Assembly (NCBI RefSeq): GCF_006345805.1
Contig: NW_021831987.1
Location: 1 to 64,000, forward strand
Source: Octopus sinensis
Taxonomy: Eukaryota
Length of the DNA stretch: 64,000 nucleotides
Direction of reading: 5' to 3'
A model generated the notes under the pieces. That model made no database searches. It was not told the DNA's origin and saw nothing but the letters and a program-made list of their open reading frames with translations. A program made the position numbers and the translations under genes. Below, one piece after another: positions 8,573 to 53,720 of the stretch (positions within the stretch are counted from its first letter, which is position 1; each line of letters starts with the position of its first letter).

Positions 8573-9051
8573 TTTAAAATAAATAGTTTGTTCTTCCTTC
8601 ATTTCCAAAACTTCACTACCACACCACCAACACGGCCACCACCACGGCCATCACCACCACGACCACTGCCAACAACAACAGCAACACTACAAGGAAAGAA
8701 GAAAGCTTTTAGGCGAACACTCGACATACTAGAAATAGCTGTCAAATCTCAAAAAAATTACACTTTACAGACTTGAAAATGGACACTTCGATGATGTGCT
8801 GTTGAATTTCTTGTTCATAGGAAAGAGATAGGATGCTTAGGTCAGGAATGTATTTGATTGTATTTCTAATCGATCAGAGTTGACCTGAATCCAAACAGCA
8901 AACAATAAGAACTACAGACTTTAATCACAAACGCAGTGCTTCTCGGTTAAGATACCAAACATCTGACATAGATGCAGATACGGTGATTGCTCCATCTTCA
9001 CAGATGGTTGCCGTCTCGCTGGGCTTCCTCGTTCACAATGTGGTCAGTTTT

Positions 9052-9102
9052 ACAGTTCTATATTTAAGAGATGAGGAATTATGTACATTATTTACATTCG
9101 AC

Positions 9103-9163
<61 letters not shown>

Positions 9164-9464
9164 AAGAAGAAGAAGAAGAAGAAGAAGAAGAAGGAGAAGA
9201 AGAAGGAGAAGAAGAGGAGGAGGAGGAGGAGGAGGAGAAGAAGAAGAAGAAGAAGAAGAAGAAGAAGAAGAAGAAGAAGAAGAAGAAGAAGAAGAAGAAG
9301 AAGAAGAAGAAGAAGAAGAAGGTCGAGAAATACCTAGGGAATGAGAAACCAGGCTCGAAATTTCTCCAAGACACCTGAAGAAGGCTGAAGGGTATATCAG
9401 CTGAAACGTTGTTTTAACAACAAACAAGATGAGGACAAATATCTGTCGAATGTAAATAATGTCA
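9052..9464. mobile_element. HHR-bearing non-autonomous element, inverted unit (HHR 9370-9415, + strand)
   Basis: Inverted tail 9052-9102, then (AAT)n/(AAG)n, then GACAC-CTGAAGA-AGGCTGA..TCAGCT-GAAACGTT. Flanked by TCAGTTTT at 9044-9051 and 9465-9472. Confidence 0.75.
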
Positions 9465-9654
9465 TCAGTTTTGACCTTCCGTCTATGACCTCTCGGATGA
9501 CATTTTCAGTCCCGCTGTAGATCTGCATGGTTGGGTAAGCGACAGACGAAAGCTGTAACTTTTTCTGGATTGATCGGATCACATTGTGGGATATGATATC
9601 CGTAGAAGCCATTTCGCTAACTACTCAAGTTGAATCACCTGCCCTAGAAGAAAG

Positions 9655-9960: not shown

Positions 9961-10947
9961 TGGTTAGTATTGAGTTTTCTTCCCAGTGCACAGCTCACAG
10001 TTGCACAGCTGGTTTAGAAACCTATTATCCTCCATCCATGCGTACGTACATGAATATATCAGAAAGAAAGCCACCAGCTAACACGCACATTACAAATACA
10101 GTCTGTACGCAGAACAATAACAATATGCAGGACTCTTCTCTACTTCAAAATGGGACATTGTTTTTGTTATCAACATTCCAACGATAGAGCTGTGTATCGT
10201 AGTTAGAAACCAGCTCTTTCCTTACAGGAAAACTTCATATAATTAAATATGCGTGAATGTATGAACACATGCGCGCATTTGAATGTGTGTTTATGTATGT
10301 GTGCATGTGTGTATTTGAGTGTGTGTGTTTGTATGAATGTGCGTGTGTGTGTTTGCGTGTGTGTATACATATGTACGTGAAAACAATAAATATATTATAA
10401 ATAAAATACTTTAAACAAGAAATAAAGAAAGGAACTGAACAAGATGTAAGCAAATGAAATATTTCCTTCCAGGAATGACTGCTATGTGTCATGGCCGAAT
10501 GATTCCCTTCTGGTCTTTGAAACGTTCCTCGTTTTCATCCTCTCTAATTATCCACAACACCGAAACTTTCGCGTTGTGACGGTGTGTTTGCTTTTGTGGC
10601 AGGGGAGTGAGAGAAAGCCAGGGTGGAAGGGAAAGAGGGAGAAGAACACCTAGAATCTTCCTGAGTACTTAACTGGTTTGTATCTTTATTTAACCTCCCA
10701 GAAAGCATGAAGTGGGAGTCGGCCACTCTAAAATTTCAATCTCGAGTGCGGAAAGCCGTTAGAAATACCACAAACCAGACAGTCTGTTACATTCACGTTT
10801 CTATTAATTCGCCACCTTGCTTATAGAGGTCAATACATGAAGAATATATAACGTAAAGGTGGGATGATGTAGGGGTGGAGTCCGTAAATTTTTATGTCTT
10901 GTATGGTATTAGATTGAATCAAAAGTTTTGCAATATTTTGGCAACTT

Positions 10948-11456
10948 AAGGCAGTGAGCTGGCAGAAACGTTAGCACGCCGGGCGAAATGCTTAGCGGTA
11001 TTTCGTCTGCCGTTACGTTCTGAGTTCAAATTCCACCGAGGTCGACTTTGCCTTTCATTCTTTCGGGGTCGATTAAATAAGTAGCAGTTACGCACTGGGG
11101 TCGATATTATCGACTTAATCCGTTTGTCTGTCCTTGTTTGTCCTCTCTGTTATCCCTTGTGGATAGTAAAGAAATAGGTATTTCGCCTCCCGCAAAATTT
11201 TGAGCCTTGTGCCTAGAGTAGAAAAGAATATTTTGTTTATAAGGCGGCGAGCTGGCAGATTCGTTAGTACGCCGGGCGAAATGCTTAGCGGTATTTCGTC
11301 TGTCTATACGATCTGAGTTCAAATTCCGCCGAGGTCGATTTTGCCTTACATCCTTCTGGGTTCGATAAATTAAGTACCAGTTGAGTTCTGGGTCGATCTA
11401 ATCGACTTTTACCCTCCTCAAAAATTTCGGGCCTTGTGCCTAGAGTAGAAAAGAAT
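10948..11456 (+). mobile_element. SINE family C, two tandem copies (tRNA head, central domain resembling the Meta domain)
   Basis: AAGGCGGCGAGCTGGCAGA head, GAGTTCAAATTCC B box, GCCTTTCATCCTTTCGGGGTCGAT-type core. Confidence 0.85.
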
Positions 11457-11600: not shown

Positions 11601-12124
11601 GTTCAGCCAAATGAGACCGATATAATAACTTAGCGGTTCGCCAAATCAGATCGATAGAATAACTTAGCTGTTCGGCAGAGGAGATCGATAGAAAAACTTA
11701 GCGGTTCGTCAAATGAGGTCGATATAATAACATAGCGGTTCGCCAAAAGATCGATATAATAACTTAGCGGTTCACCAAACGAGACGGATATAATAACTTA
11801 GCAGTTCGCCAAATGATTTCGATAGAATAACTTAGCTAAGTTATTCTATCGATCTCGTTCGCCGAACTGCTAAGTTATTCTATCGACACCATTTGGTGAA
11901 CCACTAGGTTATTATATCGATCACTGTTGGCGAACCGCTAAGTTATTCTGTTGGTCTTATTTTGCGAACCGCTAAGTTATTCTATCGATCACATTTTAGC
12001 GAACCGGTAAGTTGTTATATCGATCTCATTTGGGGAATCGCTAAGTTATTCTATCGATCTCGTTTGGCGAATGCTAAGTCATTATATCGATCGATTTTGG
12101 CGAACCGCTAATTTATTCTATCGA
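11601..12124. repeat. Mirror-symmetric 34-bp minisatellite derived from a SINE A internal segment
   Basis: Unit AACTTAGCGGTTCGCCAAATGAGATCGATAGAAT. About 6.8 units forward and about 8.3 reverse, joined at AACTTAG|CTAAGTT (11835/11836). Confidence 0.9.
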
Positions 12125-20146: not shown

Positions 20147-20353
20147 GGGACTAAACATAGTGTGGACAAACAGGGACAGACAAACGCATTAAGTCGATTA
20201 CATCGACTCCTGTGCATAACTGGTACCTAATTTATCGACCCCGAAAGGATGAAAGGCAAAGTCGACCTCGGCGGAATTTGAACTCAGAACCTAACGGCAG
20301 ACGAAATATGGCTACGCATTTCGCCCGGCGTGCTAACATTTCTGCCAGCTCCC
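20147..20353 (-). mobile_element. SINE family C
   Basis: Homology to 10948. Confidence 0.85.
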
Positions 20354-20372
20354 CGCCTTCTTACATACATAC

Positions 20373-20896: not shown

Positions 20897-21290
20897 GAAG
20901 GTGGCGAGCTGGTACAATCGTTAGCACACCGGGCGAAATGCTTAGCGGTATTTCGTCTGCAGTTACGTTCTGAGTTCAAATTCCGCCGAGGTCGACTTTG
21001 CCTTTCATCCTTTCGGCGTCGATTAAATAAGTAACAGTTACGCACTGGGATCGACTTAATTCGTTTGTCTGTCCTTGTTTGTCCTCTCTGCGTTTAGCCC
21101 CTTGTGGGTAGTAAAGAAATAGGTATTTCGTCTGCCGCCACGTTCTGAGTTCAAATTCCGCCGAGGTCGACTTTGCTTTTCATCCTTTCGGGATCGATAA
21201 ATTGAGTACCAGTTGCGTACTGAGGTCGATCTAATCGACTGGCCCCCCTCTCCAAAGATTTCGAGCCTTGTGTCTAGAGTAGAAAAGAAA
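20897..21290 (+). mobile_element. SINE family C (dimeric)
   Basis: Homology to 10948; the core is duplicated. Confidence 0.85.
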
Positions 21291-21728
21291 ATGAACAGTA
21301 AGGCTAGACCTTTCCAGACACTACGAATATACAGAGAAGAGAAATCAAGCGCTTTTTAAACTAATTTTACTGCTTTTATATGCAACACCTCTGTTATTTC
21401 GCCGAGAATTTGTGATGTATCTTCACGATTCTTTCAACAGCAACACTATAAATGTATCTTTAAATATACCTCAGTAAAGTGAACCATTTAAATATGACGC
21501 TGTGTTTTATGTGCATTTATGTATACACTCAGATATGCTGGGGGAGAGTCACAGAGGGATGCTTCTGTAGATATTTCTATATTTGAACGTATTGCCAGTT
21601 ATCTAAAGAATATTTATTTAGATACATATAAACATATGCTTACATGAATGCACACACGCACACACACACACACACACACATATGTATACACATCACACAC
21701 ACACACACAACACCATACCAACATATAT

Positions 21729-23665: not shown

Positions 23666-24058
23666 ATCAACAATCAAGGAACGGCCATAATAGGCCATTC
23701 ACCCACTAGAAATAACAGCCAAAGCTTCAACCGCAAATAAAAATTAATTCCGTAAACCAGGAGAAAATTTAAAAAACATTTACCCTGTAATTTCTTATAC
23801 GATGCACCGTTTCATCTGCTGTTAATGGTAAACTAACCTGATTAAATTAAATCAAGCCAAGATTGGCTTGATTTAATTTAATCAGGTTAGTTTACCATTA
23901 AACAGCAGATGAAACGGTGCATCGTATAAGAAATTACAGGGTAAATGTTTTTTAAATTTTCTCCTGGTTTACGGAATTAATTTTTATTTGCGGTTGAAGC
24001 TTTGGCTGTTATTTCTAGTGGGTGAATGGCCTATTATGGCCGTTCCTTGATTGTTGAT
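23666..24058. repeat. Near-perfect palindrome, 195/196-bp arms, 2-nt spacer
   Basis: Centre TCAAGCCAA-GA-TTGGCTTGA (23861-23862); only one 1-bp indel seen between the arms. Confidence 0.95.
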
Positions 24059-32399: not shown

Positions 32400-33290
32400 T
32401 TGAATATAGTCACACGGCCTGAAATTTCGATCTCAAAAATTGACTGGTGCCTTACTTTATTGACCCCGAAGGGATGGAGTGTAAAGTTGACCTCGACGGG
32501 ATATGAATCCAGACTGTAAAAAGTCGGGAGAAATATAGATTACAAATTTTGGCACAAGAACAGCATTTACGGGGGAGGAAGTAAGTTGATTACATCCATC
32601 CACAGTACACAACTGGCACTTATTTTATGGACCCATAAAGGATGAAAGGCAAAGTCGACCCGGCGGCGTTTGAACTCAGAATGTAAAATCGGAAGAAACG
32701 CCACGAAAAGTTTTTTCCGACATGGTAACGATTCTTATTTCTTTATTACCCACAAGAGGCTAAACATAGAGGGAACTAACAAGGACAGACAAACGGATTA
32801 AGTCGATTACATCGACTTCAGTGCGTAACTGGTACTTAATTTATCGACCCCAGAAAGGATGAAAGGCAAAGTCTTGAACTCAGAACGTAACAGCAGACGA
32901 AATACCTATTTCTTCACTGCCCACAAGGGGCTACACACAGAAGGGACAAACAAGGACAGACAAACGGATTAAGTTGATTATATCGACCCTAGTGCGTAAC
33001 TGGTACTTAATTTATCGACCCTGAAAGGATGAAAGGCAAAGTCGACCTCGGCGGAATTTGAACTCAGAACGTAGCAGCAGGCGAACTACCGCTAAGTATT
33101 TTGCCCGGCGTGCTAACGATTCTGCCAGCTCGCTGCCTTAAAGTCAGGAGAAATATCGCAAGGCATTTTCTGCAACGCTCTAACGACTCTGAAATCTATG
33201 CGAATGAGTTAATCGATTAAGTCAGCCCTAGTACTTAACTGTTGACCCTTGTTGGATTTGAATTCAGAACGCAAAATCCCGGAAGAAATA
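32400..33290 (-). mobile_element. Stack of at least five SINE family C units
   Basis: Repeated GGATGAAAGGCAAAGTCGACC..TTGAACTCAGAA cores in the same orientation. Confidence 0.8.
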
Positions 33291-33677
33291 TCACAAGGCT
33301 TCGACTATTCTAGCAATCCACTCACCTCAACCATTCCAGCGATTTTTAGGGCAAGTGGTTAATCGATACCACTGACCCTGGCACTTGTCGGGTACTTTAT
33401 ATTATTAACCCTATAAGGATCAAAGGCAAATTTGATTTCAACGGGATCAATTTTTGTTTCGTGTTCAGTCCCACTGTCCAGCATCATGGCCTGGTGTCTT
33501 CTAAAATAGTTCCCAGGCCGTAAAGTGCCGGAAATAAATAACGCAAAACATGACTTTAGCAACGCTTTTATGATTCTGTAAGCTTTTCGCATTAAACAGC
33601 TTCCGATCATAATGATTAAACATGCAAATCATCATTTGGTTCTCGCCGATCATCGTGCATATGACGATTTATCAGCC

Positions 33678-33873
33678 TTATTTACATAATTTACACTATT
33701 TACGTTTGATGGATATTTGTCATCTTGTTTGTTGTTAACACAACGTTTCGGCTGATATACCCTCCAGCCTTCATCAGATGTCTTGGGGAAATTTCGAACC
33801 TGGGTTCTCATTCCTAAGGTATTTTTCGATGTTGTTGTTGTTGGTATTATTATTATTATTATTATTATTATCA

Positions 33874-33915
<42 letters not shown>

Positions 33916-34053
33916 TCACTGCCTAGAATCGACCTCGAAATCTTGGGGTTAGTAGCCCGCACTCTTAACCAGTACGCCATATGCCCGTGGGAATATAACG
34001 TAGTGGTGATCTGAATAATAATGATAATAATAATAATAATAATGATAATAATC

Positions 34054-34111
<58 letters not shown>

Positions 34112-34143
34112 TGATGATGATGATGATAATGATGATGATGATG

Positions 34144-34182
<39 letters not shown>

Positions 34183-34734
34183 TAATAATAATAATAATAA
34201 TAAATGCCTTGATGCAGTACCAGACAGTGCCTCTCGTGGCTTCTGATCTTAACTGATTGGAAGTGTTATCATGTACATTGTTTTGTCTTGGTATAAAAGA
34301 TGGGCTACAGAAAATATTTTGCTCAATACCACAGATTTGCCTATCAATTGTTTGACCGTAACCAGTTGAGCATGTCCTTTAGTGGCTGACAATATGTGCA
34401 CCTCTGATCAGGAGTAGAAGTAGTGGAGGAGTATCATAGCCGTGTGTTGGAGGTTCGGATAATTCACCTTTGTTTCGTTCAACATCCTTAAACAATCCTT
34501 ATTCAGGGACCTTTTGAGCGGGATGGGCTACTCGACCAGAAGAAAATTCTAACTGGGCCCCACCTGCAAGGTCATGTGCTGTTTATCTTGATATGAGATC
34601 ACCATGTCACGCACATATGGTTGTGATGCATGTGCCTGGTCTACCCTTATCAGACGGGTTGTCATGATGGATATACTGGGCTTCGTATAGTTTACGCCAG
34701 TGTCACTTTGATGGCATGCACTACTCTCTCACTC

Positions 34735-34810
<76 letters not shown>

Positions 34811-34991
34811 TCGAAAAGTACCTTAGGAATGAGAACCCAGGTTCGAAATATCCCCAAGACAACTGATGAAGGCTGGAGGGTATATCAGCCGAAACGTTGT
34901 ATTAACAACAAACAAAATGAGAACAAATATCCGTCAAATGTAAATAATGTAAATAATGTACATAATTCCACATCTCTTAAATATAGAACTG
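33678..34991. mobile_element. Head-to-head HHR-SINE unit with nested element X; HHRs at 33737-33782 (-) and 34858-34903 (+)
   Basis: Perfect 12-bp TSD GATTTATCAGCC (33666-33677 and 34992-35003); tRNA-like head on the minus strand ending at 33986. Confidence 0.85.
34203..34735 (+). repeat. Unclassified 530-bp element X within (AAT)n
   Basis: Reverse-complement homolog of 36422-36961; AAT tracts on both sides. Confidence 0.85.
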
Positions 34992-35729
34992 GATTTATCA
35001 GCCGTTTCGAGATATCAGCATGCATCAGCAATCAGTTTGTTTGCTGAAGTTATAAACAAGAACTTCTAACATAGATGTTTAAACCTGAGATACCTTTGGC
35101 TGACGAGACACAATGATGTTGAAACACCAGGTGTTCTGGAGTCCGTTTATTGTAATGAAACTAGTGTGATATGAGCACACATTCGTCTTGAAGGTGTTCT
35201 TCTGTGATGAATCACACAAGCGCCTGAACGAATTAAGAGTATGCAAGACATAGCGTAACGAAGAGCTGTTACCCCGCCCTCTTTAGTTCTGAACCCGACG
35301 AATGTCGAAATATTTTGATACAAAACTCTATGTTTTTGATTCATGTTGTTCATTCTCGCGATCATAAAATGACATTATTTAATTACAATTATAAACGCTT
35401 TGATTCACTTAATTTAATTTTGGTGTTAATATAGACTTTATATTTATTTATTCCAAAATAATGCAAATAATACCAATTTCCCCTGGGGTCGAGACATTGA
35501 GGATTAAAACAGCATGAGATATTACAGGTATTGAATGGATTGACTACGTGGGAGTTAGATTTAAAATATGATAATGACAAAAAGAAAAGCAGCAGCTTGA
35601 GTTTTTGGTGGATTTGAAGTAGTAGTAGTAGTGGTGGTGGTTGTGGTGGTGGTGGTGGTAGTGGTGGTGATGATGGTGGTGGTGGTGGTGGTAGTAGTAG
35701 TAGTGGTAATAGTAGTAGTAGTAATGGTG

Positions 35730-35795
<66 letters not shown>

Positions 35796-36251
35796 ATTAA
35801 CAAAGTGTAATTTTGATCTCGTCTCTGGATTATGAGTCTAACACGCAGTTCCTGCACCCCGCTTTCATTTTTCTTTTTTCGGGGGTGAAAAGCAGTACCC
35901 ATGGCCCTTTTGTGTTTTCAGGATCAACGAAGCAAGCAGGGAAAAATGAGGAAGTTATATTTGGACAAGAGATATGTCTAAATGCTTGCAAAAGATATAT
36001 CGTCACCATCATCATCATCGTCATCATCATCTACAACAACAATAGCTCCTAGACATTACTGTCTTGATGCAGTTCTATATTTAAGAGATGAGGAATTATG
36101 TACATTATTTACACTTGAAGGATATTTGTCCTCATCTTGTTTGTTGTTAACACAACGTTTCGGCTGATATACCCCCCAACCTTCATCAGGTGTCTTGGGG
36201 AAATTTCGAACCTGGGTTCTCATTCCTAGGGTATTTTTTGATGTTGTTGCC

Positions 36252-36282
<31 letters not shown>

Positions 36283-36300
36283 TATTATTATTATTATTAT

Positions 36301-36361
<61 letters not shown>

Positions 36362-36380
36362 ACTGCTACTGTTGCTGCTG

Positions 36381-36421
<41 letters not shown>

Positions 36422-36959
36422 GAGTCAGAGAGCAGTGCATGCCATCAAAGTGACACTGAGGTAAAATATACGAAACCCAGTATACCCGTCTGATAAGGGT
36501 ACACTAGGCGCATGCATCACAACCATGTGTGCACAACATGGTGATCTCATATCAAGATAAACAGCACATGACCTTGCAGGTGGGGCCCAGTTAGAATTTT
36601 CTTCTGGTCGAGTAACCCACCCGCTCAAAAGGTCCCTGAATAAGGGTTGTTTAAGGATGTTGAACTAAGCAGCCATGTTTCCAGAGGTGAATTATTCAAA
36701 CCCCAAAGAATATCTCTCAACACATGGCTATGGTGCTCCCCCACTACTTCTGCTCGTGATCAGAGATGCATATATCGTCAGCCACTAAGGGACATGCTCA
36801 ACCGGTTAAGGTCAAACAGCTGAGAAGCAAATCTGGTATTGAGCAGAATATTTGCTGTAGCCCATCTTTTATACCAAGACAAAACAATGTACATGATAAC
36901 ACTTCTAATCAGTTAAGATCAGAAGCCACGAGAGCCACCGCCTGGTACTGTATCAGGGC

Positions 36960-36961
<2 letters not shown>
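36422..36961 (-). repeat. Element X, second copy
   Basis: Homolog of 34203-34735. Confidence 0.85.
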
Positions 36962-37026
<65 letters not shown>

Positions 37027-37027
<1 letters not shown>

Positions 37028-37072
37028 ACACCTGATGAAGGCTGGAGGGTATATCAGCCGAAACGTTGTGTC
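37027..37072 (+). ncRNA. Minimal type-I hammerhead ribozyme, intact
   Basis: GACAC-CTGATGA-A-GGCTG-GAGGGTATAT-CAGCC-GAAA-CG-TT^GTGTC; perfect 5-bp stems I and II and palindromic AACGTT stem III. Confidence 0.88.
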
Positions 37073-37139
37073 AACAACAAACAAGACGAGGTCAAATATC
37101 TGTCAAATGTAAATAATGTAAATAATTACTGTCTTGAGT

Positions 37140-48119: not shown

Positions 48120-48435
48120 TTGTTGTTGTTGGTTGTTATTTCTCGAGCCATGCTTGGCTCATGAAGCCCAGTTTCCCGGTTTCATTGACGTATAGGTCCC
48201 CCACCTGAATGTGACGTCGGTCCGTCGCAGGTGAGCTGCTAGATGCAGGTGGAAAGATTGAGAGAAAGTTGTGGCGAAAGAGTTAGCAGAACATTATTTA
48301 CATTATTTACAATTGACGGATATTTGTCCTCATTTTGTTTGTTGTTAACACGCCATATGCCCGTAGGCATATGGCGTAGTGGTTAAGAGCGCGGGCTACT
48401 AACCTCAAGATTCCGAGTTCGATTCCAGGCATTGA

Positions 48436-48477
<42 letters not shown>

Positions 48478-48815
48478 TAATAATAATAATAACATCGAAA
48501 AATACCTTAGGAATGAGAACCTAGGTTCGAAATTTCCCCCAAGACACATGATGAAGGCTGGAGGGTATATCAGCCGAAAGGATGTGTTAACAACAAACAA
48601 GATGAGGACAAATATCCGTCAATTGCAAATAAGGAAAATAATATACATAAGTCCTCATCTCTTAAATATAGAACAAAGTCAGCAGAAGTTCGCCATTACC
48701 CTCTGCCGGAGCCGCGTGGAGCATAGGTGTTTCGTTCATTAACACACACATCGCCCGGTCTCAGATTCGAGCCCGCGAATCCGCTGCTCTAATCAGTAGG
48801 CCATGTACCTCCACT
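48120..48815 (-). mobile_element. SINE family B variant split by the HHR-SINE insertion
   Basis: Halves 48120-48291 and 48677-48815 join into a homolog of 17385-17688. Confidence 0.75.
48292..48676 (+). mobile_element. tRNA-headed HHR-SINE with inverted deleted partner; HHR core decayed (48543-48588)
   Basis: A box TGGCGTAGTGG at 48372, B box GAGTTCGATTCC at 48415, (AAT)n, HHR module. TSD AGTTAGCAGAA/AGTCAGCAGAA (48281-48291 and 48677-48687). Confidence 0.85.
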
Positions 48816-53329: not shown

Positions 53330-53720
53330 ATGCGGTGAGCTGGCAGAAATGTTAGCACGCCGGGTGAAATGCTTAGCTATATTTCGTGTGTCTTTACATT
53401 CTGAGTTCAAATTCTGCCGAGGACGTCTTCGCCTTTCATCCTTTTGGGGTCGATAAATTAAGTACCAGTTGCGTACTGGGGTCGATCTAATTGAATAGCC
53501 CCCTCCCCAAAAATTTCGGGCCTTGTGCCGAGTGTTGAAAAGAGTATGCTTAGCTGTATTTCATACATCGCTACGTTCTGAGTTCAAATTCCGTCGAGGT
53601 CGACTTTGCCTATCATCTGTTGGCGTCGATAAATTAAGCATCAGTTAAGTACTGGGGTCGATGTAATCGAATCATACCCTCCCTAAAATTTCAGGCCTTG
53701 CGCCTATAGTAGAAAGGATA
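53330..53720 (+). mobile_element. SINE family C (dimeric)
   Basis: Homology to 10948. Confidence 0.85.

Follow-up and report, generated by a model that had tools for sequence, protein, structure and literature searches.

The repeats that face each other head to head in a 64,000-nucleotide stretch of Octopus sinensis DNA (contig NW_021831987.1; hereafter the window) are pseudo-LTRs (pLTRs) of an endonuclease-positive Penelope-like element (PLE), and throughout the genome they often lie as inverted pairs in which one arm is tailed and the other is clipped, between short target-site duplications. This strict pairing is probably the outcome of coupled priming at both nicks of the target from two reverse-transcription start sites, followed by end joining of the two cDNAs.

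Pseudo-LTRs of a Penelope-like element

The first-pass annotation had related its repeated "monomer" to Penelope, and this link is correct. In many of the loci anchored on the head of the unit, the end of an ORF lies upstream, and the native junction between ORF and head has 232 exact matches in the octopus genome. The longest open frame, of 551 aa in a natural copy, holds RT and GIY-YIG-type motifs and has 1,703 homologs; the close ones score above the cut-off for RVT_1, and one of them (P0064) has a C-terminal GIY-YIG domain at residues 505–562. Through these homologs, the element exhibits the single ORF with RT followed by a C-terminal GIY-YIG domain that defines PLEs, a domain order that excludes Naiad and Chlamys, whose endonuclease is N-terminal according to the available part of PMC8557442. 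A Poseidon label for the family would be given by resemblance. None of the 150 matches scored holds an intact ORF, and Pfam and PDB searches with the decayed frames of the genome gave nothing significant; the element is old, and all copies sampled are decayed.

Downstream, the pLTR runs into the ORF start. The tail region, read in frame, aligns with the N-terminus of an 847-aa homolog (P0003; 20 of 44 residues identical, E 7e-6 for the pair), and the frame continues into the ORF in the natural copies L331, L333–L336, L346, and L347. Two of these (L335 and L347) begin with the head, lacking a preceding ORF, and have a tail that runs straight into the ORF, while L346 carries the pLTR as a partial tandem; the unit is thus found after the ORF end, over the ORF start, and in partial tandems, as a pLTR is. 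Its parts follow each other as tRNA-like head, AAT tract, hammerhead-like motif, ORF start, and 33-nt tail. Exact genome matches number 1,674 for a 24-mer of the head, 5,226 for the tail end, 3,887 for the hammerhead helix, and 426 for the palindromic centre, with none for backward controls, all of these being lower bounds for a family that is about 6.6% diverged (from the column majority, per arm).

The layout of an inverted pLTR plus a tail is already known for PLEs, in which inverted 5' copies, a tail of 30–40 bp at one end, short duplications, and palindromic head-to-head junctions have been described (PMC3846280, PMC8557442, PMC2377424, PMC8969392), and Penelope families have been reported in a cephalopod genome (PMC13282606). 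As far as the available parts of those papers go, the octopus element resembles the Penelope/Poseidon PLEs Pen2 and Pen3 from Adineta vaga (PMC3846280; PMC8557442) and Penelope from Drosophila virilis (PMC2377424) in its RT followed by GIY-YIG (about 850 aa in homologs), in a pLTR that overlaps the ORF start, and in the inverted 5'-truncated copy, the optional tail of 30–40 nt at one end, the short target duplication, and the junction palindromes. Unlike them, it has a duplication mode of 12 bp, compared with 8–10 bp in the A. vaga examples (PMC3846280), and its pLTR opens with a tRNA-like segment, whereas theirs hold polymerase II-type promoter motifs.

Four insertions of this family lie in the window. 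The one at 33666 is flanked by two copies of a 12-bp target-site duplication (GATTTATCAGCC, 33666–33677 and 34992–35003 on the plus strand), read in the sequence. Its clipped arm, mapped by BLAST to 33678–33985 on the minus strand, comprises the tRNA-like head (33910–33985), the AAT tract, and the hammerhead region, and lacks the 3' tail. A palindromic junction (33975–34000), built on the native mini-hairpin TGCCC-AC-GGGCA with its loop in native orientation on the clipped arm, leads to the tailed arm on the plus strand. The first part of the tailed arm (33988–34202) consists of a head stub of about 20 nt, a deletion in the head that joins TAGTGGT to GATCTGAAT, and an AAT/GAT tract; the second (34812–34991) consists of the ORF-start region of the pLTR, the hammerhead-like motif, whose type I core was read as CTGATGA (34863–34869) and GAAACGTT (34891–34898), and a tail of about 33 nt (about 34958–34991). 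The 12-bp repeat, the minus arm with its intact head, the centre, and the deleted plus head are all in the sequence as first described; the plus arm is a PLE arm with a deleted head as claimed, but not a single unit, since a separate repeat of 533 bp (34203–34735, plus strand) is nested inside its AAT tract. An empty copy of the 33666 locus was not found in the paralogous-site search.

The second insertion (48281–48687; PLE parts 48291–48674) lies in an 11-bp duplication with one mismatch (48281–48291 and 48677–48687). Its short clipped minus arm (48291–48351), made of about 60 nt of tail and 11 nt of head, meets a whole tailed pLTR (48366–48674) at a palindromic centre (48351–48376) that is present as quoted earlier, and the 11 bp occur once in 7 of 10 empty paralogous copies of the host repeat. 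The third (36055–37137; PLE parts 36070–37126) and the fourth (9045–9472; PLE parts 9053–9462) have neither head nor centre. The former shows a 13-bp duplication (36055–36067 and 37125–37137), a tailed minus arm that holds a nested 533-bp repeat (36421–36962), and a clipped plus arm (37024–37126), and the latter an 8-bp direct repeat (9045–9052 and 9465–9472), a tailed minus stub of 46 nt, and a clipped plus arm (9324–9462); both repeats were read by eye. One full and one clipped arm are found in all four insertions (9053–9462, 33678–34991, 36070–37126, and 48291–48674), as had been stated, the centre in two, and two whole heads in none.

The 533-bp segment was considered as a part of the PLE monomer and rejected, because 28 of 30 genome copies hold no PLE piece in their 3-kb locus. 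This repeat, with 5,898 exact 27-mer matches and hence at least 5,898 copies in the genome, is non-coding, nearly always lies between AAT tracts, and is often tandem (34203–34735 and 36421–36962 in the window; L131–L160 elsewhere); it is a short element that an AAT-targeting LINE of the Dong/R4 type probably carries. The AAT tract of the PLE is a hotspot for nested inserts, and LINE 3' fragments are nested in it or host the PLE at L039:474–1124, L092:955–1557, and L017:912–1388; the LINE has an RT-associated, zinc-binding domain that scores slightly below the cut-off for Pfam zf-RVT.

The repeat search over the whole window was dominated by microsatellites. Other repeats seen there are an inverted repeat of 158 nt, 100% complementary and 77 nt apart (23666–24058), which is either a young foldback element or an assembly fold-back; two 34-bp tandem arrays of 7 and 8.5 units in opposite orientation, joined at 11835–11836 into a palindromic minisatellite (11601–12124); and a dispersed repeat of about 200 nt that looks like a SINE body, with copies 86–91% alike (10946–11150, 20159–20360, 20897–21060, 32937–33141, and 53332–53494) and a 171-bp tandem duplication at 32736–33043.

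One tail per inverted pair and a short target-site duplication around most

Genome-wide, 300 loci and the window were parsed into 156 inverted pairs, 108 of them with both ends readable. Exactly one tailed and one clipped arm are present in 106 of the 108, a count that includes three local duplicates dropped in later tests; the exceptions are L235, where the parser merged two neighbouring insertions, and L260, a clipped/clipped pair. The same pairing holds for 36 of 37 pairs in the 80 loci anchored on the hammerhead, an anchor that does not select for ends, after L235 is dropped (p 5.5e-10 against a free choice between equally used sites). An assembly artefact was rejected, given that the arms differ by about 11% and that both end classes occur as loose ends in raw reads.

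A target duplication scoring at least 9 flanks 73 of 106 inverted insertions, compared with 7 of 522 shuffled flank pairs; it is 11–13 bp long in 51 of the 73, with a mode of 12 bp, and the duplications have 24% GC. That the direct repeats are single at empty sites, on which the earlier claim of insertion depended, was borne out in all nine independent informative paralogous cases: among 72 insertions tested, empty paralogous sites were found for 11 (9 independent, that at 48291 included), in each of which the commonest flank overlap equals the duplication length, the other 61, including the insertion at 33666, being uninformative.

Identical PLE insertions were also seen in duplicated blocks (L230/L233, L231/L232, and L177/L178), which are segmental duplicates or uncollapsed haplotypes; L177 holds in addition an empty paralog of its own target site. 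At L054:250–2463, two inverted PLE insertions with facing tails lie 86 bp apart, which suggests local re-insertion.

With two duplicates removed, the hammerhead-anchored sample (n = 78) consists of 45 inverted and 33 single-armed copies, or 47% inverted and 53% single-armed in appearance after weighting for double sampling. As to whether most copies are simple monomers, about half look single-armed, but few of those are target-duplicated. A duplication was found in 24 of 35 tailed/clipped pairs and in 2 of 21 single-armed copies (p 1.9e-5), with 12 of the 33 single-armed copies left out of this comparison (10 ending at the AAT tract and 2 broken), and less sharply defined 5' ends may account for part of the lower rate. 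Genuine single copies with a target duplication occur (L205 and L238), and many apparent monomers are probably remnants or copies split by nested inserts. Head-to-tail hammerhead arrays of the kind formed by non-LTR retrozymes are absent from the 80 hammerhead-anchored loci. According to the available part of a preprint, non-LTR retrozymes of animals derive from pLTRs (bioRxiv 10.64898/2026.07.22.740005); the octopus repeats are likewise short and pLTR-derived, with a hammerhead-like motif, although arranged as inverted pairs and not in head-to-tail arrays.

Junctions, arm relatedness, and a proposed priming at both nicks

The first-pass annotation had described the insertions as head-to-head dimers with a recurring palindromic centre, which proves overstated. 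The junctions of inverted copies range widely, between ORF position −1735 and tail position 235, most of them being direct joins at unrelated points, and among the 45 hammerhead-anchored inverted copies the centre occurs in 5 and both heads are kept in 3. An exact-match microhomology test was underpowered, with 5 of 17 junctions usable. There is nonetheless a hotspot at the head start, from which 31 of the 46 insertions that reach it stop no more than 12 nt away. The native sequence at this place contains a 5-bp inverted repeat with a 2-nt loop (TGCCC-AC-GGGCA), and the centre is this native mini-hairpin at the 5' end of the element, extended by symmetry.

The annotation had offered two origins for this structure, a cDNA that folds back at the 5' end of the element and a divergent double-headed master copy. 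The fold-back, in its full form, supposes a single priming at the tail and a cDNA that folds back and is copied to the inner tail edge, giving a palindrome that later suffers asymmetric deletions and loop flipping. Such a palindrome would explain the strict tailed/clipped pairing and the markers shared by both arms, and it agrees with the state of the 70 copies picked for an exact centre among the 426, where both heads survive in 2, the shorter palindrome arm measures at most 28 nt in 68, and the native loop is commoner on the long arm (37 of 55 centre copies) than on the short one (18). However, the loop should then always lie on the tailed arm, and it was found on the clipped arm in 14 and on the tailed arm in 14 copies with both arms readable (30:35 when one-armed copies are included). 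The tailed arm should also reach at least as far as the clipped one, whereas, of 72 insertions chosen irrespective of the centre, 47 have a clipped arm that extends further 5' and 25 a tailed arm that does; in ORF-bearing cases the clipped arm is the one that extends further in 17 of 22, by up to 1.7 kb. Symmetric junctions are not in excess either: the inner ends show no correlation, with 12 of 37 near-symmetric against an expected 9.9 (P 0.25). This origin is accordingly held to be unlikely.

In a more limited role, fold-back at the 5' end probably gives the short palindromic stubs, as the bias of the loop to the long arm suggests, although simple snap-back leaves unexplained the loop on the short arm in 18 of the 55 copies. 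It fails for the two arms, because a fold-back copy cannot add a tail that is absent from its template, and because folding back from the tailed arm would leave the loop in a single orientation, contrary to what is observed. The surviving head stub is 8–28 nt long. In one-armed centre copies, a target duplication lies close to the stub in 10 of 34, compared with 9 of 198 controls (p 5e-5), so that at least some stubs date from integration; in several of these cases, only the last few letters of the tail stand between stub and duplication.

A palindromic junction is also what would be expected from self-priming on an antisense transcript, proposed in PMC3846280, where an RNA–DNA hairpin is formed and then integrated. 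This proposal yields the head-to-head orientation, and reads on both strands in three RNA runs agree with it, with the caveat that the library may be unstranded. But the rarity of the centre among inverted copies, the direct joins at unrelated points, the free loop orientation, and the fact that one tail per insertion does not by itself follow from it make it a quite improbable source of the octopus pairs.

Regarding the relatedness of the arms, those of one insertion are indeed more alike than those of different insertions, as the annotation had asked, but modestly so: they differ by 11.0%, with permuted pairs at 12.2% (1,000 permutations, the lowest at 11.5%), in the 78 of 103 insertions with at least 40 shared columns. 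Non-majority letters are shared between arms at 1.06% (0.46% when permuted), and three subfamily markers of the non-CpG kind agree between the arms (p 1e-9, 2e-7, and 0.006); the variant at tail column 56 is on both arms in 11 insertions, on one arm in 4, and on neither in 52 (p 1e-9). The commonest letter agrees between tailed and clipped arms in 203 of 204 columns, with no fixed differences. The sharing of markers indicates that both arms come from one source lineage and then decayed separately, and it would be expected as well from fold-back or from two RNAs of a then-active subfamily.

For a double-headed master transposed as a unit, the 426 exact matches to the centre are the one encouraging sign. 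It is refuted by the scattered junctions, by the near-identity of tailed and clipped consensus letters, by the occurrence of both loop orientations, and by the ORF end that natively lies upstream of the head; moreover, the first 100 exact head matches listed include no adjacent pair on opposite strands. The chance that such a copy gave rise to the family is negligible.

Two separate retrotranspositions, from two RNAs or in sequence, could also fill one staggered cut if the second were forced to the other start site. This reading accommodates the independent inner ends and the four insertions, among the 15 that carry the column-56 variant, with the variant on one arm only; against it, the markers are mostly concordant (11 of the 15), and point changes at a later time could account for the discordant ones. 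This reading appears improbable; it differs from coupled double priming in the number of templates only.

Coupled double priming, the preferred reading, would proceed as follows. Each nicked target strand is predicted to prime reverse transcription at one of the two start sites on either side of the tail, one strand using the outer site and the other the inner; the two antisense cDNAs would then grow independently towards the 5' end of the RNA, and their free ends would be joined. Since initiation is also possible within the transcript's 5' pLTR, the head, at the RNA 5' end, is where many cDNAs would run off, and this would explain the hotspot there. At that end, the native TGCCC-AC-GGGCA hairpin would allow the end of a cDNA to fold onto itself or to pair with the other cDNA, thereby giving the recurring centre. 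The long perfect palindrome is hardly ever preserved, one head being cut to a stub during joining or soon after. Two primings explain the duplication, the inverted layout, the free arm lengths, and the free loop orientation. These steps were read from decayed copies, with no active copy or intermediate seen.

In L1 twin priming, two primings at two nicks likewise leave an inverted structure in one target duplication after end joining, with a second primer that anneals internally and with arms that represent separate, non-overlapping segments of the RNA. In contrast, both arms of the octopus insertions start within about 33 nt of each other, and the result is an inverted duplication.

Published support comes from the Poseidon element of Anolis carolinensis (PAc), whose protein nicks and extends both strands, with two internal start sites bounding the tail and a predicted dimer (PMC11167929). 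As described in the available part of that study, PAc has a hammerhead that overlaps the ORF start, where the octopus element has its hammerhead-like motif, and the two elements share AT-rich targets and a tail delimited by a pair of sites that lie within the ORF start, in an A/C/AT-rich stretch. The start site did not differ between strands in vitro, coupling thus being absent from those data, and the available text presents neither inverted pairs nor coupling of start sites between strands (PMC11167929); the genomic pairs, on the other hand, imply anti-correlated choices on the two strands, which we infer for the octopus element.

The tRNA-like head and the hammerhead-like motif

The pLTR holds a minimal type I hammerhead-like motif, a candidate ribozyme, with the core, helix II, an unpaired base before helix II, and a palindromic helix III, as in the available description of PMC4209133. 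Among 274 arms, the core has a single common non-CpG variant, which falls on N7, a free position (T in 71%, A in 28%). Rfam searches at gathering or E-value thresholds matched neither a hammerhead to the motif nor a tRNA to the head.

The first 75 nt of the pLTR are tRNA-like, with A and B boxes. The head is identical to the genomic tRNA-Arg(TCT) in 49 of 77 columns (z 7.4, 300 shuffles), but all 15 distinct tRNAs compared, from 30 loci fetched, reach z of at least 2.9, so that its isotype is insecure. ARAGORN with a lowered threshold made calls in 18 of 30 head loci, which had inconsistent anticodons and were set aside. Single-strand folding gave no cloverleaf for the heads (z about +1) and z of −0.3 to −2.0 for the tails. 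A run of four T is absent from the sense strand of two natural pLTRs, a weak observation as regards transcription by polymerase III. With default settings, the sole ARAGORN call in the window, a tRNA-His at 21633–21728, sits on CA/AT microsatellites and is probably false.

An independent tRNA-derived SINE was considered and rejected, since the head is linked upstream to the ORF end and downstream to the ORF start of the autonomous element. The unit has the tRNA-related head with A and B boxes that is expected of a SINE, but not a non-autonomous master of its own unlinked from the ORF, and its short copies grade continuously into ORF-bearing ones. A tRNA-like promoter is the likely starting point of the element; the head is predicted to serve as an internal promoter of the polymerase III type or, alternatively, to lie where transcription starts.

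Three raw RNA runs (cDNA RNA-seq) contain no pile-up of starts at the head, and none of ends. Read depth over the pLTR is about equal on both strands, in a library that may be unstranded, and loose read ends at clipped and full ends correspond to the two genomic end classes; this pattern fits read-through of embedded copies and is neutral on polymerase III. An opposite-strand joint at L180:5237–5267 (reference places) is present in reads of all three runs; at least this one inverted copy is transcribed, and it could form double-stranded RNA.

Small-RNA-derived promoters in terminal repeats have a parallel in Helenus, Ajax, and Cassandra (TRIMp3), non-autonomous LTR elements with tRNA-like segments in their LTRs (PMC10886601). 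Unlike Helenus, which as described there is a non-autonomous LTR element with duplications of 4–5 bp, the octopus family has its tRNA-like segment in the pLTR of an ORF-bearing PLE. In the available parts of the literature searched, neither a tRNA-like pLTR nor twin priming is described for PLEs; Repbase and Dfam were outside this search, and the family may be catalogued there.

The origin of the inverted repeats and the tail of PLEs is stated as open in the available part of PMC8557442. With thousands of copies, the octopus family permits counts that discriminate between models, namely a single tail in each inverted insertion, a loop free in its orientation, and arm lengths independent of each other, with either arm the longer. 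The counts add the tailed/clipped pairing, the duplication of about 12 bp, and the markers common to both arms. Worth retaining are the strict one-tail rule together with free loop orientation, which opens the mechanism to testing, and the tRNA-like pLTR head, the layout itself being known. The counts point to a coupled use of the two start sites seen in vitro (PMC11167929), and constitute a prediction for that assay. A broader proposal, which we regard as possible but rather doubtful, is that obligatory double priming by a dimer on one RNA, at two different start sites, is the default of endonuclease-positive PLEs, here combined with a captured tRNA-like polymerase III promoter. If this were true, double priming would yield tail, inverted repeat, and target duplication as one product, and the tRNA-like promoter would let an autonomous PLE generate short copies by itself in the manner of a SINE. 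The head is of importance for annotation, as copies that carry it will be filed as SINEs, and a polymerase III-type promoter would have a new location in a PLE pLTR.
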